DNA of 64,000 nucleotides from assembly GCA_000004985.1 (NCBI GenBank), contig GG738901.1; one strand, given 5' to 3'. This DNA comes from Naegleria gruberi. Lineage: Eukaryota. The translations under genes and the position numbers were made by a program. Positions 2,648 through 64,000 of this stretch are shown here, one piece after another (the first letter of the stretch is position 1; every line of letters begins with the position of its first letter). The notes beneath the pieces are model-generated. The model was not told where the DNA came from, made no database searches, and saw only the letters and a list, made by a program, of their open reading frames with translations.

Positions 2648-5600
2648 CTACTGTTTGAGGGAGTTTTTCAATCCTTGCATGTCTATCAAATACCACAAAT
2701 CTTGTTGGTGCTTGATGAGAATATTATCTTGTTGATTGAGTTTTTGAAGGAATTTAACGTTGTGTTTCAATCGATAGGAGGCATGAGCAATCTGGTGAAC
2801 ATCTAACTCGATGGCTGCAGTTGCAATTTCCTCATCATTTTGGAGTTTATGTTCAAGGTGAGCGAAAAGTTTTGGATTTTTCTTGACTGCTTGAAGAATA
2901 AATTCTCTGTCAGTTCTTAATTGATATGAGGCATGTAATAATGACTCTGGATGTGATGTAGTAGCAGCCAAAACAATTTCCTTATCATTTCTGAGATCTT
3001 CATCAAGTGCAGTCAATGCTTCTCCTGAATTGGTGACAGCTGCCATTACAACTTGTCTGTCAATCTTTAAATCATCAGATGCTCTATTAAGAATATTCCC
3101 CTTATTCATTACTGCTTTGATAACAATTTCCTTGTCAGATTGGAAATGAGGCACAGCATCAAGTAGTTGACCGTTCTTTTCAATATTCTCCAAAATAAAA
3201 TCTCGATCCATTCTAAGTTCCTTTGATAAAAAGTAAAATGATGTACATGTTGGAATAGCTGCTGAAACTACTTGTCTATCATTTTGTAAAGGTTTTGATG
3301 CAAACTTGATAGCATCCCCTGTCTGTTTTACAGCAACAAGCACAATTTCCTTATCATTTCTAAAATCCAATGAGACATATCTCAAATTCATTCCATTCTT
3401 GCTCATGGCATTCAAAACTATCTCCTTATTGTTTCTTAAATTTTCTGGAATCCAAAAAAGATTTGCTATGTGTTTGGATATTTCTAGTATAAATCCATAA
3501 TCATTTCTCAAACGATCTGAAATATGAGGGAGACAGTCTAATGTTGGCTCTTCATTTGATTTCATAGCATGAAGTACCAATTCCTTATCATCTTTCAACT
3601 CCTCTGATGCAAGTACCAATAGATGTGAATTATTTGTAACAACATTAAACATAAATTCGAAATCACTTCTGAAAGAAACGTCACAACCAAAGATGCAATA
3701 GCCATCATTTTTGGAAGCCAATAAAACTATTTCTCTATCTCCACTAAAGTGATCCAAAACAACTCCATATTTAGCAGATAATAAAGCAAATTCTCTATCT
3801 CTGGAAAATTCATTTCTAAAGAATGAAAGACTACTAGGATGTTTTCTTAGTACTTCTTCCAAAAAATCCATATCCATTCTCCAATCAAGTTTGACCAAAA
3901 CAGGGTTATAGTTGCTTATTGCCAAAAAAGATAATGCCTTATCAGATCTGAGACGCTTAGAGGCCAATTCAATGAGTTTACCATCTCTTTTTACGCATTC
4001 GTACACTATTTCTCTGTCATCCGAGTATAGCTCTGGAATATAGTTTGGTAAATTTTTCGAATATTCTAAAACCAACTCCCTATCACGCTTCATTTCAGAG
4101 GATTCTAGTCTAAATCCATACGTTTTTACTTGTGTAAGATACAGCTTTCTATCATTCAACATTGATTCAGGAATTTCAGGATGCCCAAAATAATTAAAAG
4201 CCTCCTCCAATATTTCTCTATCATTTTGGAAAGCTATAGGAATGCAACTCACATATCCTCCACATCTAATGGCTTTTAGCACAAAATCTCTATCATTCTG
4301 GAATTTTTCATCGACTGAATTTATATTTCCACCATACTGAGATATTGCTTTGATTACAATATACTTATCATTAATCAGTTCATCAGATGTGGCATATTCT
4401 AAAATGTCTGCTCCATAGTGAAGAGCTTTTAAAACACATTCCCTGTCGTTCTTCAAATCCTCTCCTGCAAAGTATAACGAACGAGGGTTACTTTCAATTA
4501 ATTTCATTATTAAATCCTTATCATTCAACAATTCAGTATTTCGAACATAATCAATTACTGTCTGATCTATTTCCAAAAGCTCCAAACAGAATTCCTTGTC
4601 CAATAATAACTCCTCAGAAACTGTTCGCATTATAGAGAATGCAGAATAGTCAATAAGCGCAGTCTTGACAATTTCTTTGTCTTTTTTTGAGTTTTTTCCA
4701 ACCATTTCCATTGCATCAAATTCACGCATATACAAAGTAAGTAAAACTATGTCTCTATCATCCTTTAGCTCTGGTGAAATATGTTTGAAAGTGGAGCTAT
4801 TTGTTCTAATTTGTTCCATAATAAATTGTTTGTCATTTTTTAAACATTCTGGAGCGTACTGAAATAGTTCACTATTCAACTTAATAGCCATTCGCATGAA
4901 TTCTACATCATTTTTCAAATCTGAAGAAATCACTGGCTGATAATTATTTCGTTTGATAGCCTCCAATATAATCTCCTTGTCGTTTTGTAATTCTGGACAA
5001 GTAAAACTAAAACAGTTAGGATATCTTTTGATTGTTTCCAAAACAATATTTCTGTCGTTTCTAAATTGATCTGGTAAATGTTGGAATCCATATGGACATA
5101 TTTCGAGTGCTTTTTTAACAATTTCATCATCATTCCTCAATTCTTCAGAAGCAAACTCAAGTACGCTTGTTCCCTTTGCTGACACAAGTGTCATAACAAA
5201 ATCTCTGTCTTTCAAGAGATCGGGATCAACGTACTTCAGTGCATGCTCATGCTTACAGGCAGCAAGATAAACAATTTCTCTATCGGCTCGTAATTTCTCC
5301 GAAGCATACTGAATGGATTGTCCACTGCTCATCACAGCAATTTTAACCAGAGTCTTGTCATTCTTTAATTCATCAGGTATTCTACTCAAATAATCTCCAT
5401 CCTTTCGTAAATATTTACATAGAATTAATCTATTACTCTCCAATAGTGGTGGTGAAGCTCTCCTGTGCCAAATTCTACCAAAGGAAGTCATTTCTGTTTG
5501 TATCCTCTCATACAGTTCATCATTGTCATGAATAACTTTCTCCCGAGCTTCTTGGAATTGGCTCATCAAGGAAAATGATTTTATTTGTCCGTACATATCA

Positions 5601-5650
5601 ATTTCTTCATCTGTGACACAGACAACTACCACATCACTCAGTGAAATCAT
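2648..5650 (-). CDS. DUF4116-type tandem-repeat protein (about 1000 aa)
   Basis: The ORF is uninterrupted and built of about 25 copies of a roughly 38-aa unit with consensus L(K/R)NDKEIVL.A(V/I)K.NG.AL.YAS.EL. The ORF-track start at 5665 is TTG; the first ATG is at 5650 (MISLSD...). Confidence 0.75.
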   Translation of the reverse strand: MISLSDVVVVCVTDEEIDMYGQIKSFSLMSQFQEAREKVIHDNDELYERIQTEMTSFGRIWHRRASPPLLESNRLILCKYLRKDGDYLSRIPDELKNDKTLVKIAVMSSGQSIQYASEKLRADREIVYLAACKHEHALKYVDPDLLKDRDFVMTLVSAKGTSVLEFASEELRNDDEIVKKALEICPYGFQHLPDQFRNDRNIVLETIKRYPNCFSFTCPELQNDKEIILEAIKRNNYQPVISSDLKNDVEFMRMAIKLNSELFQYAPECLKNDKQFIMEQIRTNSSTFKHISPELKDDRDIVLLTLYMREFDAMEMVGKNSKKDKEIVKTALIDYSAFSIMRTVSEELLLDKEFCLELLEIDQTVIDYVRNTELLNDKDLIMKLIESNPRSLYFAGEDLKNDRECVLKALHYGADILEYATSDELINDKYIVIKAISQYGGNINSVDEKFQNDRDFVLKAIRCGGYVSCIPIAFQNDREILEEAFNYFGHPEIPESMLNDRKLYLTQVKTYGFRLESSEMKRDRELVLEYSKNLPNYIPELYSDDREIVYECVKRDGKLIELASKRLRSDKALSFLAISNYNPVLVKLDWRMDMDFLEEVLRKHPSSLSFFRNEFSRDREFALLSAKYGVVLDHFSGDREIVLLASKNDGYCIFGCDVSFRSDFEFMFNVVTNNSHLLVLASEELKDDKELVLHAMKSNEEPTLDCLPHISDRLRNDYGFILEISKHIANLFWIPENLRNNKEIVLNAMSKNGMNLRYVSLDFRNDKEIVLVAVKQTGDAIKFASKPLQNDRQVVSAAIPTCTSFYFLSKELRMDRDFILENIEKNGQLLDAVPHFQSDKEIVIKAVMNKGNILNRASDDLKIDRQVVMAAVTNSGEALTALDEDLRNDKEIVLAATTSHPESLLHASYQLRTDREFILQAVKKNPKLFAHLEHKLQNDEEIATAAIELDVHQIAHASYRLKHNVKFLQKLNQQDNILIKHQQDLWYLIDMQGLKNSLKQ

Positions 5651-5774
5651 TTTTTTAATAAACAATTTAATAATATTAAAATCAAATTAATAATTGATTC
5701 TAGATTATGAAATTTCCAAATAATTAAGTGGACTGTTCGGAGTTAACTAGTATAATCTTTCCATTGAAAAAAAA

Positions 5775-8343: not shown

Positions 8344-8658
8344 ATGACAACTCCTAGTGGTACTAACGAATTTAATCCTTTCATTTTGCAAGGAACAACA
8401 CCGTTGGGAATGAATGATAGTGTTTCCTCTCTTTTTCAGGATTTACTTGGCAACATGTTGGATATGAATAATAATTTTACATCGCCACCATCCTTTTTAT
8501 CTTCTCAACAAGCACAACAAACAATTTATAACCAACAACCAGTGGTGATAGACAATTCGGAAGTTGATGATTTTAATTTTGACGCTCCAGACGAAGGTTT
8601 GATAAATCCTAATTTACATTCCATTGCATGTTTGCAATGTAGAAAGCTACACAGAAAA
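8344..8658 (+). CDS. Zn(II)2Cys6 fungal-type transcription factor A, exon 1
   Basis: It ends with IACLQCRKLHRK, the first three Cys of the binuclear cluster. The donor GTAGGT is at 8659. The ORF-track start at 8290 is upstream; the first ATG is at 8344. Confidence 0.75.
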
Positions 8659-8703
8659 GTAGGTAATATTATTACCATGTTGATTTGCTAATTTGTCAAT
8701 TAG

Positions 8704-10569
8704 TGTGACAAGAAATATCCTTCATGTTCTGAATGTTTGGAAAGAGGAAAGGAATGTTGCTATAGAACCCCTAAAAAGAAGGGAAGAACAAAAGGTAGTA
8801 AGAACAAACCAAAACCTACTCAACCACCTCTTCAAGAAAAGGTCAAGAAAACACTTGTAGTGGTTTCTTCTTCATCTTCTTCGTCATCTTCATCATCGTC
8901 TTCCGATTCAGACAATAATTTATCACCTCCATCACACAGTGGTTCACCACCTTTGGAGGGATATACACAACAACCAAGAACAACAACATTGGCAACAGCT
9001 AGAAAAATTGCACAACCATATGCTCTTTCAAATCAACAATTGTTAAATGAAATGCTCAAAAGGAAGACTATTGACATGTATTATGACATTATTGGTATGG
9101 GATGTAGTGTTGTTCCAAAACCAAAGATGGAAAGATTGGCATTTGAGTATCTCAATGATGATGAACCAAGTGGTGAAGACCATTTTTATGACTCTCGTTC
9201 CTACAGACTTTCATCTACAAAATCTAGTATAAGAGCTCTTCTCTTTTCAATGCAGGCATTGTGTGAACAAAGAAGAGGATTTTCTGAATCGGCCAATGCT
9301 GCATATAGGGAAGCTAAAAGAAATTTAGCTAATTCTTTTGATGATTTGGATAATCCATATATTAAATTGACATATGGTAACCTATCTTCATTTCTCGCTG
9401 GTGAGGGTGATGACGTTACATCTCAATTTTACTTGAATAATCTGAAATATGCATTGGATAAACCATCTGATAAGGCATTTAAAAGAGATATTGGAACAGC
9501 TAGCGATTTATCAGAGGATGATGACGATAAAATGATTAGGGCATTCATGATGAAATGCTCACTATGCTCGAAATATGATAACGTGGATAATTTGAATATT
9601 TGGGATAGTTTCAACACGCTGTACAACATCAAAACCCAAAAACAGCCGCCATACTCTTTAGAAAGCATTCTCAAGAATGGAATTACACCTTCGGATGTTC
9701 CCAAGTTGATGAGTCTTTCAGAACTCATCAAATCTATTTTGGAGAATTATGCTGTTCACAGCAGATTTTCCACCATTCAGTCAACACTTTCAATGTTGAT
9801 GAAGGAAATTATTTACATTTCCTCAAAAGTTACCATCTTACTCTCTGTTGGAATATATGAAGGAGAAATGTTGGAATCTCTTGCTGATCAAATTACTGTT
9901 ATCACAGAGCATGATTTGTTTGGAATGTTACCTTGCAGTTTGACACATTTCATTATAATTCCAATATCAGTTCATATCAAGATTTTCCCAAAGGTTGAAA
10001 AGATGATTTTGGAACGGCTGGATATGGGTAAAAGCCTATTGACAATTTTAGAAGAACCTTATGTGAAGAAATATTTTGAGAATATTGCAAAAGATTTAAG
10101 GGCTATGCAAATGCTCAAATTGAGATATAAGAGAATTGACAAGTATTATTCGAGAGTAATTGCTGATTTGGAGAAGATTAACAAGTGGAAATTGGAGAAA
10201 CAATTTGATTTGATTGAGAGTTTCGAGTTTGGCAAATCACCTGTAAATTCTGATCCTACAAAAAAGAACGAGCACTTTCCATTCAAATCAGCATTCCAAT
10301 CGACATTTATCAGCACCCATCCTTTTGATCCTAGTCTGAGATATGAGAGTAAAACTCCTGAGCAAGAGCAACAAGGAAAGCCTCAACCAAAATCAGGTAA
10401 AGATGTTGAGCCAGTGGGAAGTTCTCCTGTTGATTCAACCGCTACCTTCCGAGCTAACCATCAACCAATCCAATCATCTGATTTATTTGATGTTTCGAAT
10501 GACGATCTTTTCCCTTTCGAAATGGATACTGTAAATACTGATATTTTTGCTAATATTGACGAATTCTAA
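8704..10569 (+). CDS. Zn(II)2Cys6 fungal-type transcription factor A, exon 2
   Basis: The acceptor TTAG is at 8700-8703. The exon starts CDKKYPSCSECLERGKECCY, completing the Cys6 cluster. A poly-Ser tract and a long C-terminal region follow. The 45-nt intron 8659..8703 is phase 0 and carries a stop codon. Confidence 0.75.
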   Translation, partial: CDKKYPSCSECLERGKECCYRTPKKKGRTKGSKNKPKPTQPPLQEKVKKTLVVVSSSSSSSSSSSSSDSDNNLSPPSHSGSPPLEGYTQQPRTTTLATARKIAQPYALSNQQLLNEMLKRKTIDMYYDIIGMGCSVVPKPKMERLAFEYLNDDEPSGEDHFYDSRSYRLSSTKSSIRALLFSMQALCEQRRGFSESANAAYREAKRNLANSFDDLDNPYIKLTYGNLSSFLAGEGDDVTSQFYLNNLKYALDKPSDKAFKRDIGTASDLSEDDDDKMIRAFMMKCSLCSKYDNVDNLNIWDSFNTLYNIKTQKQPPYSLESILKNGITPSDVPKLMSLSELIKSILENYAVHSRFSTIQSTLSMLMKEIIYISSKVTILLSVGIYEGEMLESLADQITVITEHDLFGMLPCSLTHFIIIPISVHIKIFPKVEKMILERLDMGKSLLTILEEPYVKKYFENIAKDLRAMQMLKLRYKRIDKYYSRVIADLEKINKWKLEKQFDLIESFEFGKSPVNSDPTKKNEHFPFKSAFQSTFISTHPFDPSLRYESKTPEQEQQGKPQPKSGKDVEPVGSSPVDSTATFRANHQPIQSSDLFDVSNDDLFPFEMDTVNTDIFANIDEF

Positions 10570-10649: not shown

Positions 10650-10751
10650 CTAGTTGAATGTATCATAGATATTCTTCAGAGTTCTATCCTTAATAGAATA
10701 AGGAATATCCAAAAATCCTCTCAAAACCTTGAGCAAGTCAATTCCCATTGT
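10650..10751 (-). CDS. DEG/ENaC/ASIC-like channel A, exon 3 (end of TM2 and C-tail)
   Basis: It encodes TMGIDLLKVLRGFLDIPYSIKDRTLKNIYDTFN*, which aligns with the C-terminus of paralog B (GLEILKVLRGCLWIPKSIKKKTAKYIWEEFNR). The preceding intron 10752..10796 runs GTAAGT...GAATAG. Confidence 0.7.
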   Translation of the reverse strand, partial: TMGIDLLKVLRGFLDIPYSIKDRTLKNIYDTFN

Positions 10752-10796
10752 CTATTCAAAATATTGCAATTAAATATTAAAATGTTTAAAACTTAC

Positions 10797-11404
10797 CAAA
10801 CCTAGAATACCAGCAATATCTCCTAATAAACCTTCAATTGTTCCAGTAATAATTTCAACAATATTATTTTGAACGAGTGATGAATAAGCAATAGTAATAT
10901 AAACTCCATCATCATCATTACCAACAATTTCAATGTTGGTATACTTTGAATCCCACCTAGTTTCTTCCAATTTGGGATTTTCAATGGATGGTTTCAATCT
11001 CTTTGTGTAAACCTTTGTCAACATGAATACATTATCCATATCAGGCATTGCATAATTGGTTTCAGCTAATAAATCAGGATCGGTTCCTGGCTCATGGAAT
11101 GAGATTTGAAGCCCAATTCTAGCCCCTGTAACATCTTCGTCTGGTCTAGTAATTGTAAAGTAGAGTTGTATGGATCCCATATATCCAGTTTTGTGTGTTG
11201 AAAATGGGTCCGTGGTACTATTATTAATGACATAACAATTAAAATCCGATCCCAATTGATTAATTCTCTTTTCTTCAATAAGTCTACCAGTTTCATTATA
11301 GGAAACATCTGAACCATCTACGTTCATTAAGCTCATATATTTAAATTTAATATCGCAATATTCACAATCTTCACCTCCAGAATTCCAATTACAAATTGTC
11401 ATTG
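10797..11404 (-). CDS. DEG/ENaC/ASIC-like channel A, exon 2 (extracellular domain and start of TM2)
   Basis: It encodes ..MTICNWN..ISFHEPGTDP..LLGDIAGILGL. The post-TM1 FP.(V/M)T.CN motif is split by the 46-nt intron 11405..11450 (GTAAGT...GAAAG). Confidence 0.7.
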
Positions 11405-11450
11405 CTTTCAAATGTGTTTACTTCGTTAAAGCACAGTTGTCTCAACTTAC

Positions 11451-11826
11451 TTGGAAAAGCCATTGGCAATTTTGCTACATAGGATAATGAAGTAGTTGGA
11501 TTTGCAAGTGTTTCATAGTAATTAATAGTAGAATTATAAATATACCAAATGCAAAATCCAATCATTACGACCCATCCTACCAGAGTAATAATGTGATACC
11601 ATTTTGTTGGTAATTTACAGCAGTGTTTCACCTTTTTCTTCTTCTTCTTATCCTTTTTATCCTTCTTATCCTTCTTCTTTTCTGCCTTATTCTTATCTTC
11701 TTGCATCTCGACAATCGTTTGGTCTCCCGATGATTTACCTCCACCCTGATGTGAGTGATGTTGTTTCTGTTGCTGTTCTATCAGTTCCATTGACGATGAA
11801 GGAACTGGCTGCTGTGATTGTTGCAT
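11451..11826 (-). CDS. DEG/ENaC/ASIC-like channel A, exon 1 (N-terminus, Lys-rich tract, TM1)
   Basis: The ATG is at 11826 (MQQSQQ...). A KKDKKDKK tract is followed by the TM1 helix ITLVGWVVMIGFCIWYIY and then ..AKLPMAFP plus the donor. Confidence 0.7.
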
Positions 11827-11992
11827 TATTTTGTTATTAAGGGAAAATAAAAAGCTTTTCAAACCAAATACAAGTTCACGCCATCTTAATTGTAGATACC
11901 TGCTGCATCTAGGAGAGAAATACAACACGCGCTTTCTAACGACGCCAACGAAGTCGTATAAAAGCATACAAAACACACAAGAGAGAGAAAAA
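11827..11992. promoter_or_regulatory. Putative shared bidirectional promoter of the head-to-head DEG/ENaC-like gene pair
   Basis: This is the 166-bp interval between the divergent ATGs at 11826 (-) and 11993 (+). I could define no motif. Confidence 0.35.
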
Positions 11993-13042
11993 ATGAAAAT
12001 ATCTTCTCCTGAATCGACCAATAATCAAGTCTTTCCATCAGCGATGGAATTAAGGAAGGAAAATGAGCCAAAGGTTAATGATGAAGAAGAACATTCCGAT
12101 GATCATTCATCATCGGAGGGCTCTGTTGATTCATTCTTTGGTTCAGATCCATTGAAAAAACGTATAGGATATAGTATTAAGGACCTTATCACATTATTGG
12201 GTTGGATTGCATGTACAGGAGTATTCATTTGGTACTTTTACTCTTCAATAACACAAACTGTGGAGGCTTTTCAAAATCCTGCCACCACAGTTTCCTACAA
12301 AGCCAAGACGCCAATGTATTTCCCTGCAGTGACTTTGTGTAATTGGAATCCTGATGATGAGGAAGGAGGAAATAAGGGGAGTAAATTTGAAGCTGTTGGA
12401 TGTTATAGAACTGTAGTGTCACCTAATAATGTGAGCTATGTACCATGTGAATTTCCCTATTATGAGAAGACAATATTCTCTGGAGTGTACTATATGAATT
12501 GTATTGTTTTTAACAATGATACAAGTGCACCTGCTGTTGCTTCCCGTACTGGACATACTGGATCGTTGGTTTTTAAGGCAAGGTTTCCTTTTGATTTTTT
12601 TGGTGAGGATGATATGACTGGATTTAGAGCTGGAGCAACTGTTTCATTTCATGAAGTGGGATCAGTGCCCAATCTATCTGATGAAACGAATACAGCATCT
12701 GGAGGATTGGATAATACATTTACCATTCGAAAGATGGTGAACAAACGATTGGTTCCAAATCCAACCACTGAAATCTATTGGGATTCAGATTATTCTGCCA
12801 TTGACATGATTGAGAATAGAACTGATTACATCACTGTAACGGTGGCTTATAACTCATTGAATATTAGAGAGCAGACAGATGTATACACTGTCAATATACT
12901 CCAATTATTGGGTCAGCTTGCAGGTATGACCGGTACATTGTACGGTTTGGAAATTCTCAAAGTTTTGAGAGGATGTTTGTGGATTCCAAAATCAATCAAG
13001 AAGAAGACTGCAAAATATATTTGGGAAGAGTTCAATAGATAA
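11993..13042 (+). CDS. DEG/ENaC/ASIC-like channel B (intronless, 349 aa)
   Basis: TM1 is LLGWIACTGVFIWYFY. The post-TM1 motif is PMYFPAVTLCNWN (ASIC has FPAVTLCN). The palm-like segment is VSFHEVGSVP. The C-terminal stretch NILQLLGQLAGMTGTLYGLEILKVL aligns to the ASIC/ENaC pre-TM2/TM2 sequence [23 protein letters not shown]. Confidence 0.75.
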   Translation: MKISSPESTNNQVFPSAMELRKENEPKVNDEEEHSDDHSSSEGSVDSFFGSDPLKKRIGYSIKDLITLLGWIACTGVFIWYFYSSITQTVEAFQNPATTVSYKAKTPMYFPAVTLCNWNPDDEEGGNKGSKFEAVGCYRTVVSPNNVSYVPCEFPYYEKTIFSGVYYMNCIVFNNDTSAPAVASRTGHTGSLVFKARFPFDFFGEDDMTGFRAGATVSFHEVGSVPNLSDETNTASGGLDNTFTIRKMVNKRLVPNPTTEIYWDSDYSAIDMIENRTDYITVTVAYNSLNIREQTDVYTVNILQLLGQLAGMTGTLYGLEILKVLRGCLWIPKSIKKKTAKYIWEEFNR

Positions 13043-13058: not shown

Positions 13059-13923
13059 TTATATTTTGATGACTTCCATCTTCTTGATAGCTTCCTCATC
13101 AAAATCTGTATTGTTTTGAACTGTTCTGTGTTTGATTGCTTCAACCTTGCTCAATTTTTCACGTTGCTTCTTGTCCTTCCTTTCTCGTTTGGTGAGTTTC
13201 TTTTCTTTTGTCTTGCTACTCGATGTCGAGTCCTCTACTGTTGAGGTACTTGAGGATGATGAACCAATAGTATTAGAATTGGAAGATGGAGGTGGATTAC
13301 TTTCAGAGCCCAACTCTAATAAAATTCCAATAACCATTTCAGTATTGAAATTATTTTGAATAATCATATCCTTCACCATTTCCAAATCAAATCCGCTCTC
13401 ATAACCAATTGTTGACATGACCATATCAAAGCATAAATCCAAATTTCCATCACCTGAAGCAGCTGGTGAAGAGAAGGCTGTGTTCTGTAATTCATGGCTC
13501 TTACTACTTCCTACAGAGCTATTGCTTGACTGGCTCTTTGAATTCTTCTTGCTATTACTACTGGTGCTGGATGCTGATGAGCTCTCAAGGTATTGCATTT
13601 GGCAGAGGAAATCAATTGTTGAGTCCATATCTTGTCCAAAATCTGCCAAAGTATTTCTAATCAATTCCAAATCGGTACATCCAGTAGATTGAATAATTAT
13701 TTGTTCCTTTTTAGAGATTTCACCTGATGATGATTTACCTTCGCTAGCCCTTTGATATAATTCTCGAACACTGTCACTCATGAAATGAACAGAATTGTAA
13801 TGTTCTCCCATATGATAACTGAGTTGAATAAGTCTACTCTCTGGTTGATTATAGTTAACAATATCAAATGATGGCTGTCCTAATTGGTGAACTCGAATAT
13901 TTACATTGAATGCCAGTGAAATA
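13059..13923 (-). CDS. OTU-domain deubiquitinase, exon 2 (His box and UBA-like tail)
   Basis: It encodes ISLAFNVNIRVHQL...LSYHMGEHYNSV, the OTU His motif. The 54-nt intron 13924..13977 runs GTTAGT...TATAG. Confidence 0.75.
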
Positions 13924-13977
13924 CTATAAACAAGATTGAAAACATCAGTCATTAATCAAGTCAAAAAATAAACTAAC

Positions 13978-14477
13978 CTTTGCAAAGTGAGATTATCACC
14001 CCACTCTGTATCCTTCTTCATAGTTTTACAATAATCTTCAAATGGTTCATCACAAACAAATGGAGAAAACATATCCGGATTGGTAATCATATATTCCACA
14101 GCTCCTTGTCTAATTTTTTGGTACTGAGTTTGATCTCCATACAATTGATCACTCACAGACCTAAACTGACAATTTCCATCACCAGTAACCTTCTTCAAAT
14201 ACAATCCATAAGGTTCCAATTGTTGATTCATTTTCTGGAAATCTTCATCCTCCAATTTTATTCCGCCCCCTCGCTTTTTCTTTTTTCTATCCTTCTTATT
14301 GTTATAAATTTCTGGATCATCATATTCGGATTGTTTCATGGTGGATGCTTTTTTAGAGAAGGGATCTTCTTCATCGGCACTTCTCCCACCATGATGAGAT
14401 TTCTTCTTTGATTGTTCGTAGGCTTGTTTTCCGCTGAGTTTGCTACTATTCTTCTGTTTGCCCATTTTTTTTTGCAT
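13978..14477 (-). CDS. OTU-domain deubiquitinase, exon 1 (catalytic Cys box)
   Basis: GDGNCQFRSVSDQLYG is the OTU Cys motif. The ATG is at 14477. Confidence 0.75.
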
Positions 14478-14558
14478 CTAAAAATAAAATTTTTGTGATT
14501 TTTGAAAAATGAATTTTCAATTTACAAATTGAGCGTAAAATTGTTGAGATAAATATTA

Positions 14559-16201
14559 TTATTTGAGTTGTTTATTGATTTTGATGCATAATCTTTCTGC
14601 CATTGATAATGGTCGAGTTGTGGTAGAAGATGACAAGCTGCCACTTGAGAAACATGAAGAATATTGACACACATCACCAAAACTTCCAACACTGCACGAG
14701 CAAAAATCAAATCCTGTGCAAGATCCTTTTCCTCCACAAACTGTTGGGTTTGTTGCTTCAATTCCAAAACATGTTGGAGCTATTTCACATTTAGCTCCAC
14801 TGTAACTTGTTGGACATGAGCAATTTCCAGTCTCAGGAATGCAACTTCCTCCATTCAAACATGGGCTAACTGTACAGTTAGTATATTGACACTCACTGCC
14901 AAAAAAACCTTCTTGACAAGCACAAGTGTCAAAATTCACACAATTTCCTCTTTTGGAACAAACTTCACTTCCAATTTTTTCATAGCATTTGATTAAGCAT
15001 AGAGATCCATCCTGTTTCAGGGCATAGTTTGAGCTGTCACAAACAGGTGTCAATCTTCTTATTAAATTGGTAGATGCATCCGACAAGTAAATTTGTCCAG
15101 TCAATTCGTCCAATATAATTTGTTCAATACCTATTAATCTTGCTGATCGTGCATCAATATCTTCTCCATTTTCAATGATTCCGTCCCTATTTAAACTACC
15201 AGCAATTGTTTCAATTTGTAAGGTGGAACTGTCAACTCTTCTAATGGTTCTTCTTTGAGCAATAAATAAGTCACCACTCTTTTTTGAAACTGCAATTGAG
15301 ACAGGTTTGACAATATTAGCATCAAGTGCTGAGCCACCATCTCCAGAAGTCCATTGGCCTCCTACAACACCAGCATATCTTGTAATATTTACAAAATTTG
15401 CATTAATCTTTCTAATAACTGAATTTTGATAATCACAAACAAATAAATCTCCATTCGAATTGAAAGAAAGATCGTATGGAAGATTCAATTTAGCAATTGT
15501 TGGGTCTCCACCATCTCCTGAATAATCCCCAGCTCCTCCTTGTCCTGCAACTAGATCAATAGTTGCCATTTGTGTCATGTTAAATTTTCTAACTTGGTTG
15601 TAAAAGGTTGTAAAGTAAAAGGTATCACGATTATTTGGAGCAAATGCAAATGATCTAACTCCTTGATATTGGCTTTCAAAAATTGGAAGAGCAAAGTCAG
15701 AAACTGTTCTTGAACTCGTGTCCAATATTCTATGTTTGAAACTGTCATATATCAAAAATACATTTGGACCCAGGACAGTATCTCCTATTAAGGCAGTGGG
15801 ATGAGTGAAAGAGGCTGTCGAAGCAGCACCATTATCATAACCAATATCACCACTTCCTGCCATAGTTTGAACTAAATTGGTGTGCAAATCAATTTTTCGA
15901 ATTCGATAATTGAGACTATCCAAAAATATTAAACTAGTATCTTCTCCATTTCGTCTCAGAAACAAGTCTGTTGCGTTGTTAAAGACTGCCTCATTACCAT
16001 TCACATTATCTTTAAAATTTTCATCAATACCTGCAATGGTTATTACGTTATTTACACCATTAGAGTTCATTGTAATCTTTCTTAATCGCCTATTTCCAGA
16101 ATCGTTAACAATCATTGAGTATTCACTAGTGTTTGGATCATAGTAATATAGCATTGTACTTGGGTTGTTGAATTGTGCAACCTTGGCATCTCCTCCATCA
16201 C
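14559..16201 (-). CDS. Secreted NHL-repeat protein with C-terminal EGF-like Cys-rich repeats, exon 2
   Basis: The 64-nt intron 16202..16265 (GTAAGT...AAAAAG) joins ...GFSG|DGGDAKVAQFNNP in frame. NHL blades are followed by repeated C.C..G..G..C EGF-like modules. Confidence 0.8.
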
Positions 16202-16265
16202 CTTTTTAGATTCAAATTTAGAAAATTTAATATGACCATTATTAAATTATTGAAATGTGACTTAC

Positions 16266-17319
16266 CTGAAAACCCTGGATTTCCAAACACACCAGCAAAT
16301 GGAGATATAATACCAGTAGTCATATTAATCACCCGAATACACGATGAATCTGAAATATACATTTCATAATCATCAGTTATTGGATTGATTGCCAAATAAA
16401 TTCCATTAATAGTTGAAAAATAAGCTTCCTGCTTATCTGAACCATATCCTGGACCTTTCCCACTCTCTGGGGTTCCTGCAAATACATTGATGAGTTGCAG
16501 TAATGGATTACTATCCAATTTCATGCTGAAAATAGCTGAATATCCTGCGCCATTTACTACCATATATAGGTAACTCCCTGCTTCATCCACAACTAATCTT
16601 GAAACAGCAGAAATTGCAGTTGATGTAGCCAAACTATTGATAGTAGCTCCTAAATCCAAAGAGTTCAGTCCATTTCCTGCTATATTTGTCACTTGTTTTG
16701 AGCTCAGGTCAAATTTTCTAATCTTGTTAAAACCAGTTTCACTGAAGAACAAAGAATTATTGGCATAAGCAGCACCAGTCGGATACAATATGTAAATACT
16801 CAAAGCATCACCATCGATACCCCCTTCTCCACCTCCACCAACAACCATTTCGACTGTTCTATCCGAAAGTGAAATTTTGGAAATTCTGTTCAATCGCTTG
16901 TTTCCAATAAGAAAGGTATTATCATTCGGATTCAATACAAGAGAATAGGCACCAAATAGTGGCCCCTGTGTGGCATCCTCTCCATCGGCCCCAACCACAG
17001 TTTCAAAAAACAGAGTTGACCACAATTCTGGTTTCGTATCTGTATTCATCACGTCCAAACTAATCCTCCTCAATCTCTGCTCTGACAACAAATACAATGA
17101 ATTATTAAAGATGGCCATGTCCTGAACCAGACCAAGTGCTGCAAGTTTTAATGGATTCGTGTCTGTAGTAATATTATATCCAACCACGGTTTTAATTTTA
17201 TAACTTGGACGCATGGATGTGGCCACGGCTGCTTTGGCTTGTGTGAATGGAAGAAAACAGAGACAAATGCCAATGAGAAAGATGACGCAGGACACAATGG
17301 TTTGTCCAACAGTTGTCAT
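16266..17319 (-). CDS. Secreted NHL-repeat protein, exon 1 (signal peptide and NHL blades)
   Basis: The ATG is at 17319. The signal peptide is MTTVGQTIVSCVIFLIGICLCFLPFTQAKA. NHL repeats carry the GDGG motif. Confidence 0.8.
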
Positions 17320-22923: not shown

Positions 22924-25110
22924 TTATTTACTACTATACTTTCTGAAACAAATTTCATCCTTGACCTCTGTTGAAAGTCTTGCCAGTGTTTCTCTATTGT
23001 TGAAAAGGTTTTGAATGTTTTCCACTCCAAAGTTGATTAGTCTTTCATAAACTGAATCATTGTAATTTCCTAATTGTTCAAATAATGTGCAAAAATTATC
23101 AATTGTAATTTGTAAATTATTCAAATAGTAATCTATCATTTCCTTTACGTCATAAAGTGCAAAACATTTAAAAAGTGGAAGAGCTTGATTGATTGGAACA
23201 CTGGAAACATCGAAAACTCCATAACAATATTTCAGAACTATCTCATGTAGGTCTTCCGAGAATTCCTCAGTATCAATAACATAAATATCATCCTTCAAGT
23301 CTTGATATTCAAAACCACTATTGAATAGTGCTTCATAGTATGGGCTGTTGGATGCAAGAATTGTTTTGTGTGCATAGAATTCTTTTGTGCCCGTCTTGAT
23401 GGTAATATCGCTTGTTGCTTTGTCGTTGAAGAGTGTTTCAACTGACTTAGTGGTCTTATCTGATGTTTCATCATCATTGATAGTAATTGGATTTATGGTA
23501 GTGGATAGCTTTTTGGCAATCGGCACAAGATGTTTTTGAAATATTGGAATGTCAACTGCGCTTGCCGATTGTTGCATTGTTTTTGCAGCGTGGCCAATAC
23601 AGTAGTCCAGTAATTGGTCTAGCAATGGATTATCAATGAACAAAGGTGCACTGTCTTTAGCTTGTGTAACTTTTTCCAAATTTTTGGAAACTAGTTGAGC
23701 ACAAGATTGACTAAATGATTTTGTAAATTCATCTACCAATTTTCTCTTCAGAGAAGTAAATCCTTTTGACATTCCAAGAATGGCCAAGATATCAACCAAT
23801 TCATACTTGTCAAACCATTCACTATCGTGATATTGTTGGTACATGATTGAATCAATTAAATGTTGAATGATTTCCATTTGAGTGGAAGTTAAGTGTTTCA
23901 ATAAAAAGGAATTGAAAACAATAGATTTAGAGAAATGAGGAGCCAAAATATTAAATACACTCTTACAGCATATCAAGTTAGTTCCATCAACAAGGTCTCT
24001 ATCATACTTTTTCAATTTGAAAGAAAGTGGTTTGAGCAGAGTTGCATGATAGGATCCAACAATTTTCCTAATTCTATTATTTCCAAAATCGCTGAAATAC
24101 ACATCTCCATTCTTTGCATGAACTGCTATTTGACATGGAGAAGAAATCTTTGCATTTATAGCAAGGCCACCATCTCCGTCAAATCCCTTTTCATTGATTC
24201 CACAAACTGTAGTGATTCTTCCATCAATTGGTGAAACTGTACAAATTCTGTTATTGCTTCGATCTGTCACATAGATAATTTGACCTCTAGTGCAAAATGA
24301 AACATCATATGGATAATTCAATTGTGCATCAATACCATCTGAATATCCTGCTTTTCCTGTTCCTGCCAATGTTGTAATGATTCCACTTTTACAATTAACC
24401 TTTCTAACTCTATGATTATTCGAATCCGCAATATAAACATCACCAGTAGTTGGATTAAAATCGAGCCCACTAGGGCCATTAAGTTGAGCATTTGTTGCAA
24501 ATCCACCTTCCCCACAAAATCCAGCAGTTCCATTTCCAGCAAATGTTGAAATAATTCCAGACGAATTAGAAATTCTTCTTATTTTGTTATTAACAAAATC
24601 AATAATATAAATATCAAAAGTTATTGGATGAATCTTGACACACTGTGGAAAATACAATTGAGCAAATAATGCCAACCCACCATCACCTGACGTACCTCCA
24701 GTATTATTACCTGCAACTGTACTTATGGTACCATAGGTTAATGAAATCTTTCTAATTCTATGATTGGAATAATCAGCAATATACAGCTCCTCATTCTTTG
24801 GATGAATTGAAACAGATAATGGACAATTTAATTGAGCATGTAAAGCCAGCCCTCCATCACCTGAATAACCTGCAACTCCAGTACCAGCAATAGTAGTGAT
24901 CTTATTATCCAATGCAGACACTTTACGAATACAATGATTTCTATAATCTGCAATATACACATCATTACTATAGGGATTAACAGCTACACCATATGGAGAG
25001 GAAAGTTTAGCCTCTATTGCTAAACCATTGTCTCCATAGAAACCTTTAATGCCATTACCAGCAATAGTCCAAATTGTTTGTTCCATTCCCTTTGGTGATT
25101 GACGCATCAT
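22924..25110 (-). CDS. NHL-repeat (6-blade) protein with C-terminal BTB/POZ domain
   Basis: The ATG is at 25110. Repeats have the form YGVAVNPYSNDVYIADYRNHCIRKV, typical of NHL. The C-terminal segment DITIKTGTKEFYAHKTILASNSPYYEALF is BTB. Confidence 0.75.
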   Translation of the reverse strand: MMRQSPKGMEQTIWTIAGNGIKGFYGDNGLAIEAKLSSPYGVAVNPYSNDVYIADYRNHCIRKVSALDNKITTIAGTGVAGYSGDGGLALHAQLNCPLSVSIHPKNEELYIADYSNHRIRKISLTYGTISTVAGNNTGGTSGDGGLALFAQLYFPQCVKIHPITFDIYIIDFVNNKIRRISNSSGIISTFAGNGTAGFCGEGGFATNAQLNGPSGLDFNPTTGDVYIADSNNHRVRKVNCKSGIITTLAGTGKAGYSDGIDAQLNYPYDVSFCTRGQIIYVTDRSNNRICTVSPIDGRITTVCGINEKGFDGDGGLAINAKISSPCQIAVHAKNGDVYFSDFGNNRIRKIVGSYHATLLKPLSFKLKKYDRDLVDGTNLICCKSVFNILAPHFSKSIVFNSFLLKHLTSTQMEIIQHLIDSIMYQQYHDSEWFDKYELVDILAILGMSKGFTSLKRKLVDEFTKSFSQSCAQLVSKNLEKVTQAKDSAPLFIDNPLLDQLLDYCIGHAAKTMQQSASAVDIPIFQKHLVPIAKKLSTTINPITINDDETSDKTTKSVETLFNDKATSDITIKTGTKEFYAHKTILASNSPYYEALFNSGFEYQDLKDDIYVIDTEEFSEDLHEIVLKYCYGVFDVSSVPINQALPLFKCFALYDVKEMIDYYLNNLQITIDNFCTLFEQLGNYNDSVYERLINFGVENIQNLFNNRETLARLSTEVKDEICFRKYSSK

Positions 25111-34907: not shown

Positions 34908-36380
34908 TTATTCAATGTACGGACAGCCACAACTCAATGATTTACCATCTTGTGAAATGTAAGGTGTACAACCAGTGCAAACATACAAGTAAGAAGTTGT
35001 GTATCTTGTTTGAACTGATTGACCAAATGCCAATTGAATACATTCATCCTTTCCTGTTCTTGATTTGAGAGATACTCCACCAAATGTTTCTAAAACATAA
35101 GAAGTCCATTTACAAACATCCCAGTTATATTGATCACAATCTCCTCTGAGGAAATTGAAATAGAAGGATCCATCCAAATTCTTGTAAATCTTAGGTCTCA
35201 ATCCAATAATGAAAGTTGGATCATCATATGGGAAATTGACTTGGAAAACCATTCTTACAAAGGCATCGATTTCAACAGAGTTTCCATTAGCAATACTCGT
35301 TCTAGAACCAAAATTTTCAATGATAGAATCCTTTCGATCTTGTTTAAAAACAGTGACTGGTTGAAGTTTGGAAGCATCTGCAGCCATCTTTGCATTTAGG
35401 TCATTAATCATTTGATTCACTTGGTCTGCCTTTGATTGGATATAATTATTGTAAATAATCTTCATATTAGCTTGTTTTGGACCATCAGGGAATGCTCTCC
35501 AAATTGGAATAGTTTCGAATTTAACAGGGACTGGATTGGAAGCAAAAGTTGACACTCTTTCTCTTTTTGATGAAATTTGAGGATTTCCACCAACAATGTC
35601 CAATTGAGCTACCTTATGATATCTAATATAACCATTAGGAAGACTGGAGGTATCAGTTTGATCATCAATTGATAATTGTAATTCTAAATCCAAGTAACTC
35701 AACATGCTTGGATCATTGTAACATGACTTGACAGAGGTTGTCAAATCAATAACACCTCCATAAACAATATTTGTGGCAATAGAATCACCAAATGATGTAA
35801 TTACTTGCATGTACAAGTCAGTATCCATTTCATAAGGAAGTAAATCAATAATCATTTGAAATTCATCAGTGACTTGAATTGTAGACAATGAAACAGTATG
35901 TGTGAAATATTGCTTTTGAATATCAGCAATAAACAAATTACCCTCAAAGAATCTTGAAAAGATTAGATCAGTAGCTGCAGATCCATGACTATAAAGTCCA
36001 TTAAAAACTGTCTGACCATCCCTTGGAAACAACATGGAAAAGTACTCTTGAGCGCTTTTCATTGTTTTTACCACAGATTCCTCACCTGATGTTGGAACAC
36101 TGGAGGGAGATTGAAGAATTTGAGGACGAATGGTGTGATCCTCTCTGCTATAACCAACTCCGGCAATAATAGGTAAATGATCATCCATGAGGTTTCTTCT
36201 ACTACTTGTTGTAGGACAATTCAATCCCTTCATTGTTATCAAACATTTGCTTTCCATAACAGTGATTTGTTCCTTCATTTGTGACATGATATTCGGAAGG
36301 GCCCCATCTACCAACACTCCTAACAATAATAAGGAACCAATCACCAATAGGATGAATGCCAATAGGAAGGAAATCTTCAT
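34908..36380 (-). CDS. Secreted hypothetical protein (signal peptide, Cys-rich C-terminus)
   Basis: The ATG is at 36380. The signal peptide is MKISFLLAFILLVIGSLLLLGVLVDG. The ORF is continuous at 490 aa. I considered a MACPF-like assignment but could not support it. Confidence 0.55.
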   Translation of the reverse strand: MKISFLLAFILLVIGSLLLLGVLVDGALPNIMSQMKEQITVMESKCLITMKGLNCPTTSSRRNLMDDHLPIIAGVGYSREDHTIRPQILQSPSSVPTSGEESVVKTMKSAQEYFSMLFPRDGQTVFNGLYSHGSAATDLIFSRFFEGNLFIADIQKQYFTHTVSLSTIQVTDEFQMIIDLLPYEMDTDLYMQVITSFGDSIATNIVYGGVIDLTTSVKSCYNDPSMLSYLDLELQLSIDDQTDTSSLPNGYIRYHKVAQLDIVGGNPQISSKRERVSTFASNPVPVKFETIPIWRAFPDGPKQANMKIIYNNYIQSKADQVNQMINDLNAKMAADASKLQPVTVFKQDRKDSIIENFGSRTSIANGNSVEIDAFVRMVFQVNFPYDDPTFIIGLRPKIYKNLDGSFYFNFLRGDCDQYNWDVCKWTSYVLETFGGVSLKSRTGKDECIQLAFGQSVQTRYTTSYLYVCTGCTPYISQDGKSLSCGCPYIE

Positions 36381-62761: not shown

Positions 62762-63532
62762 ATGTATTCACATAGTAGTAGCAATAATAATAACAATGTT
62801 AATGGGGGTGGTAGTTTGTTTTCTCCGAATAGTGTAGCATCATCAACACCTACAACACCATCTTCTCCTTCCATCATGATGAGTCCACCACCATCATCAT
62901 CACATCATCAACAACACCATCAGCATCACCATAATCATCATCATCTTCACCATTCAACTCTTCCACCATTAAATTCATTTCATAATTATACTGCTGGAGT
63001 GATGCAACATTTTGATGGTTTTCATGGAGGTTCTGCAACCTCTCCTTATGGTTCTCCTTCGTTCTCTCTACCTACAACACCTACATCAAACTATGGCCTT
63101 GGAAATGGTCAATCATCGGTAGGCATTGCATCACCTCTTCCAAATGTATTGCATTCGCCTTCTTCAGTGGGGACATCTCCACAACTCAACAATGGATCGA
63201 ATGTCATGGTCAACAAACCATCAACTTCAGCCTTTGGTAAAGTTTCTACAGCTCCAACCCCTAGTGAAATTGTACCAAATTTTGTCATTGACCAAGTGAG
63301 TAAAATTACGAATAGAGATGAATATGAACCAATCAGTCACGAGAATTTAATGTCAATAAGAAAGAGCAAGATTATTTCACCAAATAATGATATTTCTAAA
63401 AGTAAGAATCAATCTACTTCAGAGGATGAGGACTATGATGATGATGGATCAGATTCTGCACAAAAAACAAAATCCGATAAGAAGAAGTACCACCCTATTG
63501 CCTGTGTGCAGTGCAGGTCTTTACACAAAAAG
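62762..63532 (+). CDS. Zn(II)2Cys6 fungal-type transcription factor B, exon 1
   Basis: It ends ..IACVQCRSLHKK plus a GTTTGT donor. The position and sequence are paralogous to gene A (IACLQCRKLHRK). Confidence 0.7.
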
Positions 63533-63572
63533 GTTTGTTTAGTTTCGAATAATGCATTCTAACTCGGAAAAG

Positions 63573-63629
63573 TGTGACAAGAAATTACCTTCATGCTCAA
63601 AATGTATTTCTAGAGGTGTGGAATGTACA
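63573..63629 (+). CDS. Zn(II)2Cys6 transcription factor B, exon 2
   Basis: It encodes CDKKLPSCSKCISRGVECT, completing the Cys6 cluster. It is flanked by a 40-nt intron (63533..63572) and a 54-nt intron (63630..63683, GTATGT...AATAG). Confidence 0.7.
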
Positions 63630-63683
63630 GTATGTAGTTATATTGTTTTGGATTTATTGGAATTTCTAATCAATTGATAATAG

Positions 63684-64000
63684 TATAATACCCCAAGAAA
63701 GAGAGGAAAAGTCTCTAGAAAGGACACTGATAAAACTGATGTAAATAATGTTAATAACAATACTAATAATAACATGAATGGAAACTCATCCATGAACCAA
63801 TCAGGTATTCCACCTTTTGTGAGGACTGAAAAACCAAATAACCATCTTCCTCCACCATCAGTGATTGATTCATACTTTGCAGTTTTATGTGGTGGCCATC
63901 CAGCCATTGAAAAGAAAAAGCTAGAATATACTGTTCAAAATAATTACTCCTATATTAATGCACTCCTAGTGACGAATGACTACAATGTGAGGTTACCAAT
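63684..64000 (+). CDS. Zn(II)2Cys6 transcription factor B, exon 3 (partial, runs off window)
   Basis: The frame stays open to the window end (YNTPRKRGKVSRK...). Confidence 0.65.

Follow-up and report, generated by a model that had tools for sequence, protein, structure and literature searches.

A head-to-head gene pair of Naegleria gruberi encodes candidate subunits of a miniature protist DEG/ENaC-type channel

The DEG/ENaC family (ENaC, ASICs, degenerins and peptide-gated channels) is usually regarded as an animal invention. Here we describe two divergently transcribed genes, designated A and B, at positions 10,650 to 13,042 of a 64,000-nucleotide stretch (the window) of contig GG738901.1 from Naegleria gruberi (assembly GCA_000004985.1), a member of the Heterolobosea within Discoba. 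The evidence indicates that A and B are probably paralogous subunit genes (A-type and B-type, respectively) of a protist 'mini' branch of the DEG/ENaC family, native to N. gruberi, and that their products may act as a non-canonical channel. Paralogs in three Naegleria species, together with the presence of gene A exons in an existing N. gruberi gene model, support the assignment as native genes.

Gene B is an uninterrupted open reading frame (ORF; 11993..13042, plus strand) running from an ATG at 11993 to a stop codon ending at 13042; it is intronless and encodes 349 amino acids (aa). Gene A (10650..11826, minus strand) encodes 361 aa in three exons separated by two introns, with its ATG at 11826 and its stop codon at 10650-10652. 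Every AG acceptor downstream of the two GTAAGT donors in gene A was scanned, and a single donor/acceptor combination yields an open 361-aa product. Across both splice junctions the spliced protein aligns without indels to its paralog NAEGRDRAFT_64420, a gene called on contig L003 as a single ORF with no interruption (junction 1, PMAFP/TMTICNWN in gene A versus PLPFPAISICNWN; junction 2, IAGILGL/TMGIDLLK versus IAGFLGLTMGLDMLK). The features of the locus, in which TM denotes a transmembrane helix, are as follows.

Gene A exon 1, 11451..11826, minus strand: Lys-rich, predicted cytoplasmic N-terminus and TM1, ending in LPMAFP plus 1 nt (ORF and splice reconstruction, tblastn with the spliced protein).
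Gene A TM1, about 11533..11604, minus strand: hydropathy peak at residues about 75-97.
Gene A intron 1, 11405..11450, minus strand: 46 nt, GTAAGT..AG, phase 1, interrupting the post-TM1 motif FP/TMTICNWN.
Gene A exon 2, 10797..11404, minus strand: predicted beta-rich ectodomain up to LLGDIAGILGL at the start of TM2, containing in order CNWN, FNCYVINN, TGYMGS, GLQISFHEPG, ETNYA and ITIAYSSL.
Gene A intron 2, 10752..10796, minus strand: 45 nt, GTAAGT..AG, phase 0, within the TM2-coding region.
Gene A exon 3, 10650..10751, minus strand: TMGIDLLKVLRGFLDIPYSIKDRTLKNIYDTFN followed by the stop codon (10650-10652).
Gene A G-I-D-L-L-K, 10728..10745, minus strand: selectivity-filter position, from family motif statistics.
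Spacer between the divergent ATGs, 11827..11992, no strand: 166 nt, a presumed shared bidirectional promoter.
Gene B TM1, 12176..12274, plus strand: helix at residues 62-94 in the AlphaFold2 model (predicted local distance difference test, pLDDT, above 90) and in hydropathy.
Gene B FPAVTLCNWN, 12320..12349, plus strand: post-TM1 beta1 motif common to ASIC/ENaC, facing FPAVTxCN of ASIC5, ASIC1 and FaNaC in the hmmsearch and HHalign alignments.
Gene B TM2, 12896..12979, plus strand: helix at residues 302-329 in the model, aligned to ASIC TM2, comprising LLGQLAG (pre-TM2/degenerin region), the filter segment and R326.
Gene B G318-L-E320-I-L-K323, 12944..12961, plus strand: segment at the position of the G-A-S belt.

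The two proteins share 35% identity over their full length (BLASTP E = 1e-62) and are, by sequence comparison, divergent paralogs. Their corresponding motifs are PMYFPAVTLCNWN, VSFHEVGSVP and LLGQLAGMTGTLYGLEILKVL in gene B, and VAKLPMAFP/TMTICNWN, ISFHEPGTDP and LLGDIAGILGLTMGIDLLKVL in gene A. The initial annotation of the window had described a head-to-head pair with ATGs 166 bp apart; its coordinates were exact, including those of both gene A introns in the splice scan, and every motif that it quoted was found in the A and B sequences.

Profile searches place both proteins in the DEG/ENaC family. Pfam ASC (PF00858), with a gathering cut-off of 23.6 bits, matched A with 47.5 bits (E 1.8e-12; best stretch at residues 178-264) and B with 48.8 bits (E 7e-13), matches that are far beyond chance. 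A profile made from B and the gene A exons was run exhaustively with HMMER against 1.84 billion representative proteins and returned 131 clusters at E up to 1e-3, 74 of them below 1e-10. Most of these proteins are 250-400 aa long, and canonical DEG/ENaC proteins of 450-800 aa were confined to the weak tail of the search. A word-indexed homolog search (B; 36-sequence alignment) returned just the metagenome copy of B and one other protein. For further comparison 36 full-length mini members, 16 PAC orthologs and 19 canonical DEG/ENaC members were aligned. Pfam ASC was matched individually by 36/36 of the aligned mini members (best E 1.3e-16), and a profile of these members, run against all PDB sequences, matched ASIC5 (7e-12), FaNaC (3e-11), ASIC1 (5e-10) and ENaC alpha (7e-8). 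HHalign aligned the mini profile with the 19 canonical members at 99.7% probability (E 1e-26) over 268 colinear columns from TM1 to TM2, and each mini subgroup reached more than 99% against the canonical profile. The post-TM1 and pre-TM2 motifs, which align to ASIC and FaNaC, are present in both B (FPAVTLCNWN, LLGQLAG) and A (FPTMTICNWN, LLGDIAG). Taken together, these sequence comparisons put the mini proteins clearly on the DEG/ENaC side.

An AlphaFold2 model of the gene B monomer was built on the 36-sequence alignment (mean pLDDT 83.4; predicted template-modelling score 0.72). The model predicts a helix at residues 62-94, thirteen strands between 97 and 297, a second helix at 302-329 and two short C-terminal helices, with no helical subdomain in the ectodomain. 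When this model was used in Foldseek, all of the top 50 matches were PAC/ASOR and ASIC structures (E about 1e-13), the best being PAC/ASOR 7sqg_A (E 5.5e-14; template-modelling score 0.65 on the target). The predicted arrangement of two TM helices flanking a palm/beta-ball beta core agrees with both the DEG/ENaC fold and the PAC-type minimal fold. The initial annotation had assigned the pair to DEG/ENaC and had named a PF00858 search and a structure prediction as the tests that might refute this; the assignment stands, with PF00858 above threshold for both proteins and an ASIC-like palm/TM fold predicted for B.

Compared with metazoan DEG/ENaC/ASIC proteins (chicken ASIC1, 6ave; human ENaC, 6wth; FaNaC, 7yvb), the minis have the same two TM helices and beta-rich ectodomain, and share the FPAVT(I/L)CN(W)N strand, the palm strands ..SFHE.G..P and ..AY..LN, the pre-TM2 LLGDxxG and a glycine-rich TM2a. 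They differ in being found in protists rather than animals, in measuring about 350 aa against 450-800, and in lacking the finger, thumb and knuckle insertions. Two large canonical insertions, the finger that follows the CNxN strand and the thumb with its many cysteines, are absent from the mini profile and appear as gaps in HHalign, in line with the earlier description of unusually small members without these domains. The ectodomain itself, put at about 250 aa in that description, spans about 205-215 aa when measured between TM1 (62-94) and TM2 (302-329) of the B model. It contains four Cys in A and four in B, with 4-6 given for mini proteins generally. The HG motif of the pre-TM1 re-entrant loop was found within 45 residues before TM1 in none of 30 minis, compared with 16 of 19 canonical sequences, and the minis end in a conserved C-terminal ..FN(G).

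Further substitutions lie in TM2. At the G-A-S belt position the minis carry G-(L/I)-(D/E)-x-x-K, and the serine of the G-x-S filter is replaced as initially proposed (GLE in B, GID in A). Across the 36 mini members, whose overall identity is just 19-36%, G318 never varies and conservation of K323 is at least 90%. Among the matches with a recognisable TM2, about 48 of 62 have G-x-D-x-x-K, while canonical matches have G-x-S-x-x-T...E. In the ASIC1a pore numbering, in which D433 is 0', these residues are D/E12' and K15', joined by R18' in the Naegleria subgroup. R18' occupies the position of the ASIC1a glutamate E18' that is implicated in Na+ selectivity, where the minis have Arg or a neutral residue.

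About 100 representative clusters make up the mini clade; they come from metagenomes, Naegleria species, a malawimonad and Ancoracysta. The relatives that carry a name comprise NAEGRDRAFT_64420, 64421 and 66414 of N. gruberi, FDP41_006660 and 006661 of N. fowleri, and C9374_010561 of N. lovaniensis. Studer et al. 2011 reportedly noted an ENaC/degenerin homolog in N. gruberi, which is presumably NAEGRDRAFT_64420, 64421 or 66414; to treat the family as unknown outside animals would accordingly go too far. Farther relatives were found in EukProt transcriptomes of Gefionella okellyi (Malawimonada) and Ancoracysta twista (Provora), records that may include prey sequences, and in a TARA Oceans cluster; the remaining members that were looked up come from metagenome or metatranscriptome contigs. 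A rough distance tree, made by neighbour joining, unites the canonical proteins in a single group and splits the minis into several deep ones, with A beside 64420 and B beside 64421. A 2023 survey that used BLAST with animal queries reported homologs outside animals in just Tunicaraptor unikontum, Cafeteria roenbergensis and Symbiodinium, and none in Discoba, Malawimonadidae or Fungi (PMC10507113). The minis, too, are DEG/ENaC-related proteins of unicellular eukaryotes; they make up a miniature clade of their own, which those BLAST searches of Discoba, Malawimonadidae and Fungi did not detect (PMC10507113). In the searchable literature no published description was found of the mini architecture, of the pairing of the genes, of the D/E-x-x-K pore motif or of the similarity to PAC.

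Intron positions are also informative. The TM2-region intron lies after ..GILGL in gene A and after ..GTLM, two codons downstream, in N. fowleri FDP41_006660, and a metagenomic A-type gene (contig L004, 2600..3208) has an apparently comparable one. This suggests that the TM2-region intron is old and has undergone sliding and loss. Because it is near-identically placed in these genes and 64420 is uninterrupted, the introns look old and variably lost. The intronless state of gene B had been considered compatible with retroposition; since the A-type gene 64420 is also a single ORF and the TM2-region intron recurs in relatives of gene A, a retroposed origin of gene B was rejected.

The initial annotation had left two origins open, a novel lineage-specific acquisition or an overlooked ancient clade, within what it took to be a fungal host. 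With relatives in three Naegleria species, a malawimonad, Ancoracysta and many metagenomic eukaryotes, an old overlooked clade fits better than a recent, lineage-specific acquisition. The host is N. gruberi. The best non-self match was N. gruberi XP_002672040 (NAEGRDRAFT_81362), on a 309-kb scaffold, whose 1563 residues map to the window at 17118..13074, 11844..11419 and 11318..10653 (minus strand). This model is a chimera in which gene A, stripped by splicing of the 30 residues bearing TMTICNWN, is fused to an ORF at 13059..13952 and to an NHL/EGF teneurin-like gene (about 14559..17118). Gene B sits on the opposite strand within an 'intron' of NAEGRDRAFT_81362. No NCBI N. gruberi record for gene B was found in look-ups, and the sole exact copy that turned up was called as a gene on a contig of an ENA metagenome. 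The locus is therefore misannotated in the reference, with a chimeric 1563-aa model and with gene B uncalled as far as look-ups show. 'Metagenome' contigs of ENA ERZ929261 (PRJEB11402; L001 and L003) encode proteins with 100% (gene B), 98% (64421-like) and 96% (64420-like) aa identity, and N. gruberi, or else a strain very closely related to it, is evidently present in this sample.

It is very improbable that the pair reflects a recent import from animals by horizontal transfer, a contaminant contig or a fungal host. In favour of such an origin, DEG/ENaC is overwhelmingly an animal family, the 2023 survey found no candidates in Discoba or Fungi (PMC10507113), and the window carries two Zn2Cys6 'fungal-type' factors. 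Against this, the window matches the N. gruberi scaffold and its gene models, and the guanine-cytosine (GC) content is uniform across it (32-38%, about 34%). N. fowleri and N. lovaniensis, both assembled independently, have paralogs, and the short GTAAGT introns of gene A are of the same kind as the intron in the N. fowleri relative. The minis form their own deep groups in the distance tree, not nested among canonical animal-type sequences, and they lack every animal-specific elaboration. An animal contaminant or recent transfer was rejected on the GC content, the Naegleria paralogs and the tree. The fungal host was rejected because XP_002672040 counts gene A and neighbouring genes among its exons, the scaffold is N. 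gruberi and the neighbouring genes are protist-type (twenty DUF4116 repeats, NHL/EGF teneurin-like, BTB-NHL, Sel1, MACPF, SPRY and F-box). The two Zn2Cys6 genes themselves, which had misled the initial annotation about the host, are confirmed by Pfam Zn_clus after splicing, and this domain is not restricted to fungi.

A-type and B-type genes adjoin at several loci, as listed below.

Window, N. gruberi: A-type (minus) and B-type (plus), head-to-head, 166-nt spacer.
Contig L003, second N. gruberi pair (64420/64421-like): A-type (minus) and B-type (plus), head-to-head, 102-nt spacer.
Contigs L006 and L007, metagenomic: A-type 338-aa gene (minus) and B-related P0014 (plus), head-to-head, 74-nt spacer.
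Contig L004, metagenomic: B-type P0009 and then an A-type gene, tandem.
N. fowleri: 006660 and 006661, tandem.

The A/B pair seems to have been duplicated as a unit. Because A-type and B-type genes lie side by side at these loci, the arrangement suggests that A and B are co-expressed from a shared bidirectional promoter and possibly form heteromers. In N. fowleri (contig L002, 3269..5815) a gene for a hybrid histidine kinase (HisKA, HATPase_c, Response_reg) stands immediately upstream of the tandem mini pair.

The structural match to PAC (TMEM206, ASOR) raises the question of how the minis relate to this channel. Deng et al. described TMEM206/PAC as "unrelated in amino acid sequence" to ENaC/DEG despite a closely similar core structure, a likeness that they discussed as "structural convergence", and described PAC as vertebrate-conserved (PMC7904269). 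The minis and PAC (7jna, 7sqg, 8h8d) are both about 350 aa long, with a roughly 12-stranded beta core, two TM helices and no large insertions, and both have (D/E)-x-x-K in lower TM2. They differ in that PAC lacks the FPAVTxCNWN and LLGD motifs, and structure-based identity is 9-10%. In the PDB-wide search the mini profile matched Xenopus PAC (E 2.9e-7) and human PAC (8e-5), with the matches confined to TM1 and the following strand. The human PAC sequence was verified against 7jna. Set against one PAC sequence, the mini profile reached just 29% in HHalign; the 16 aligned orthologs gave 86.4% (E 4.7e-6) over 259 colinear columns from before TM1 to the C-terminus; canonical DEG/ENaC against PAC gave 1.1% over 26 columns. 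Control probabilities were at most 1.2% overall (mini versus reversed PAC, 0.3%; reversed mini versus PAC, 0.5%; 20 column shuffles of PAC, at most 0.6%, with scores of at most 19.5 versus 49.6 for the real alignment). By subgroup the probability was 90.4% for Naegleria-type, 68.5% for Gefionella, 21.7% for TARA/Ancoracysta and 9.8% for FNG-type members, a metagenome-only clade whose proteins end in ..FNG. Conversely, a PAC profile placed 25 real family members, nearly all of them minis, above the first reversed decoy, with a best score of just 16.6 bits. Pfam TMEM206 (PF15122) gave no match for A or B at E up to 10, nor for the 36 members at E up to 0.01. In the TM2 alignment, whose register is uncertain, mini G-L-D-x-x-K faces PAC A-A-(D/E)322-F-A-K325, so that the conserved mini Lys aligns with K325 and PAC K319 with a gap just before the invariant Gly. 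On our reading the minis carry a real but weak PAC signal and behave as intermediate sequences, which is suggestive of common ancestry. Tentatively, they may be survivors of an ancestral core behind both animal DEG/ENaC and vertebrate PAC/TMEM206, in which case PAC and DEG/ENaC would be divergent homologs rather than convergent; we hold this reading with somewhat less than even confidence.

These observations are consistent with a model in which each subunit would run from a cytoplasmic N-terminus through TM1, about 210 aa of ectodomain that comprise just the palm/beta-ball beta core, and TM2 into a short cytoplasmic tail that ends in ..FN. On the analogy of the solved relatives ASIC, ENaC, FaNaC and PAC, three subunits may assemble around a central pore lined by TM2. 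Opening would follow an extracellular stimulus sensed by the beta core, with pH, ionic strength, membrane tension or a ligand as candidates. The pore is expected to be poorly selective or anion-permeable, and not ENaC-like in Na+ selectivity, because of the G-(L/I)-(D/E) filter, the near-invariant Lys, the Naegleria Arg and the absence of HG. A and B may be co-transcribed from the shared spacer and could form heterotrimers like ENaC alpha/beta/gamma.

Several points weigh against this model, whose mechanism is drawn wholly by analogy. Three features that usually count as hallmarks of a functional DEG/ENaC pore, namely HG, GxS and Cys-rich domains, are missing, so that a non-channel role is possible, and the predicted fold derives from a monomer modelled on 36 sequences. 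The TM2 of gene B is weakly hydrophobic, with no 19-residue window above 1.3 on the Kyte-Doolittle scale, because of the charged residues at the filter and R18'. The B-type filter is variable (E in B and P0009, G in 64421), and B-type subunits could be modulatory or degenerate. Adjacency can stem from local duplication without functional coupling, the N. fowleri pair is tandem, and nothing convincing in the way of a conserved motif emerged on aligning the 166-nt and 102-nt spacers of the N. gruberi pairs. Some of these features would also be expected if A and B were channel-derived, non-conducting membrane proteins, for instance extracellular sensors or proteins of adhesion or trafficking, that kept the fold and lost the pore determinants. 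The charged D/E, K and R inside TM2 fit such a loss, as does the disappearance of even the acidic residue from B-type members such as 64421 (GFG). Yet TM2 and the pre-TM2 LLGDxAG are the most conserved parts of the family, with the Gly and Lys of the filter segment retained as described above; because this conservation persists amid such low overall identity, it points to selection on a pore-like element. Moreover, PAC, whose TM2 is similarly simple and which has no HG loop, does conduct ions (PMC7904269). We therefore judge a non-conducting role to be quite unlikely.

An alternative that deserves more weight, although still unlikely in our view, is that the minis are PAC/TMEM206 (ASOR)-like, that is, minimal trimeric acid-activated anion-permeable channels that are functionally, and perhaps by descent, nearer to PAC than to ENaC/ASIC. 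Their size and minimal build are those of PAC, PAC/ASOR structures are the best Foldseek matches, and the similarity is recovered by the PDB-wide hmmsearch, by HHalign (86%, or 90% for the Naegleria subgroup, versus low controls) and by the PAC profile with its 25 members ahead of the first decoy. In addition, the mini TM2 is net positive (K15', R18'), and its (D/E)-x-x-K aligns with PAC (D/E)322-x-x-K325. Anion selectivity in PAC is set by a TM2 lysine that acts as an anion filter, and an acidic residue one turn above it leads to a non-selective pore (PMC7904269). However, the PAC selectivity residue K319 falls at a gap and not at the conserved mini Lys, and HHalign probabilities below 95% are not decisive. 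PF15122 is unmatched by A, B and the 36 members, all 36 of which match ASC, and the minis carry the DEG/ENaC signatures FPAVTxCNWN and LLGDxAG. A native mini branch of the DEG/ENaC family thus remains the reading that we prefer.

The remainder of the window contains further genes of note. A 1005-aa ORF (2648..5665, minus strand) encodes about 20 DUF4116 repeats (Pfam E 1.4e-184). Animal-like extracellular or immune-type domains occur at 14559..16154 (minus; NHL and EGF), 22924..25110 (minus; BTB and NHL) and 34908..36380 (minus; MACPF/perforin). The Zn2Cys6 (GAL4-type) genes lie at about 8640..10569 (plus) and about 63480..63700 (plus), with Zn_clus E-values of 5.6e-10 and 1.7e-12 after splicing. 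Both have an intron at the same place within the zinc cluster (..CxxCRxLHxK / CDKKxPSCSxC..); because this intron splits the domain in both genes, a strict Zn2Cys6 regular expression found nothing, and a looser search together with Pfam confirmed them.

The mini clade provides intermediate sequences with which to ask whether PAC and DEG/ENaC share an ancestor and how old the family is. It also offers a minimal scaffold, with no thumb, finger or HG loop and with an acidic/lysine pore motif, for examining what gating and selectivity need. Naegleria fowleri, the 'brain-eating amoeba', also has members of the family, which are predicted to be exposed at the surface and have no close human ortholog. 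If the minis do descend from a core ancestral to both DEG/ENaC and PAC, the superfamily would predate animals and, since it has members in Discoba, Malawimonada and Provora, perhaps reach back as far as early eukaryotes, and the D/E-x-x-K pore would represent a third selectivity type in the family.

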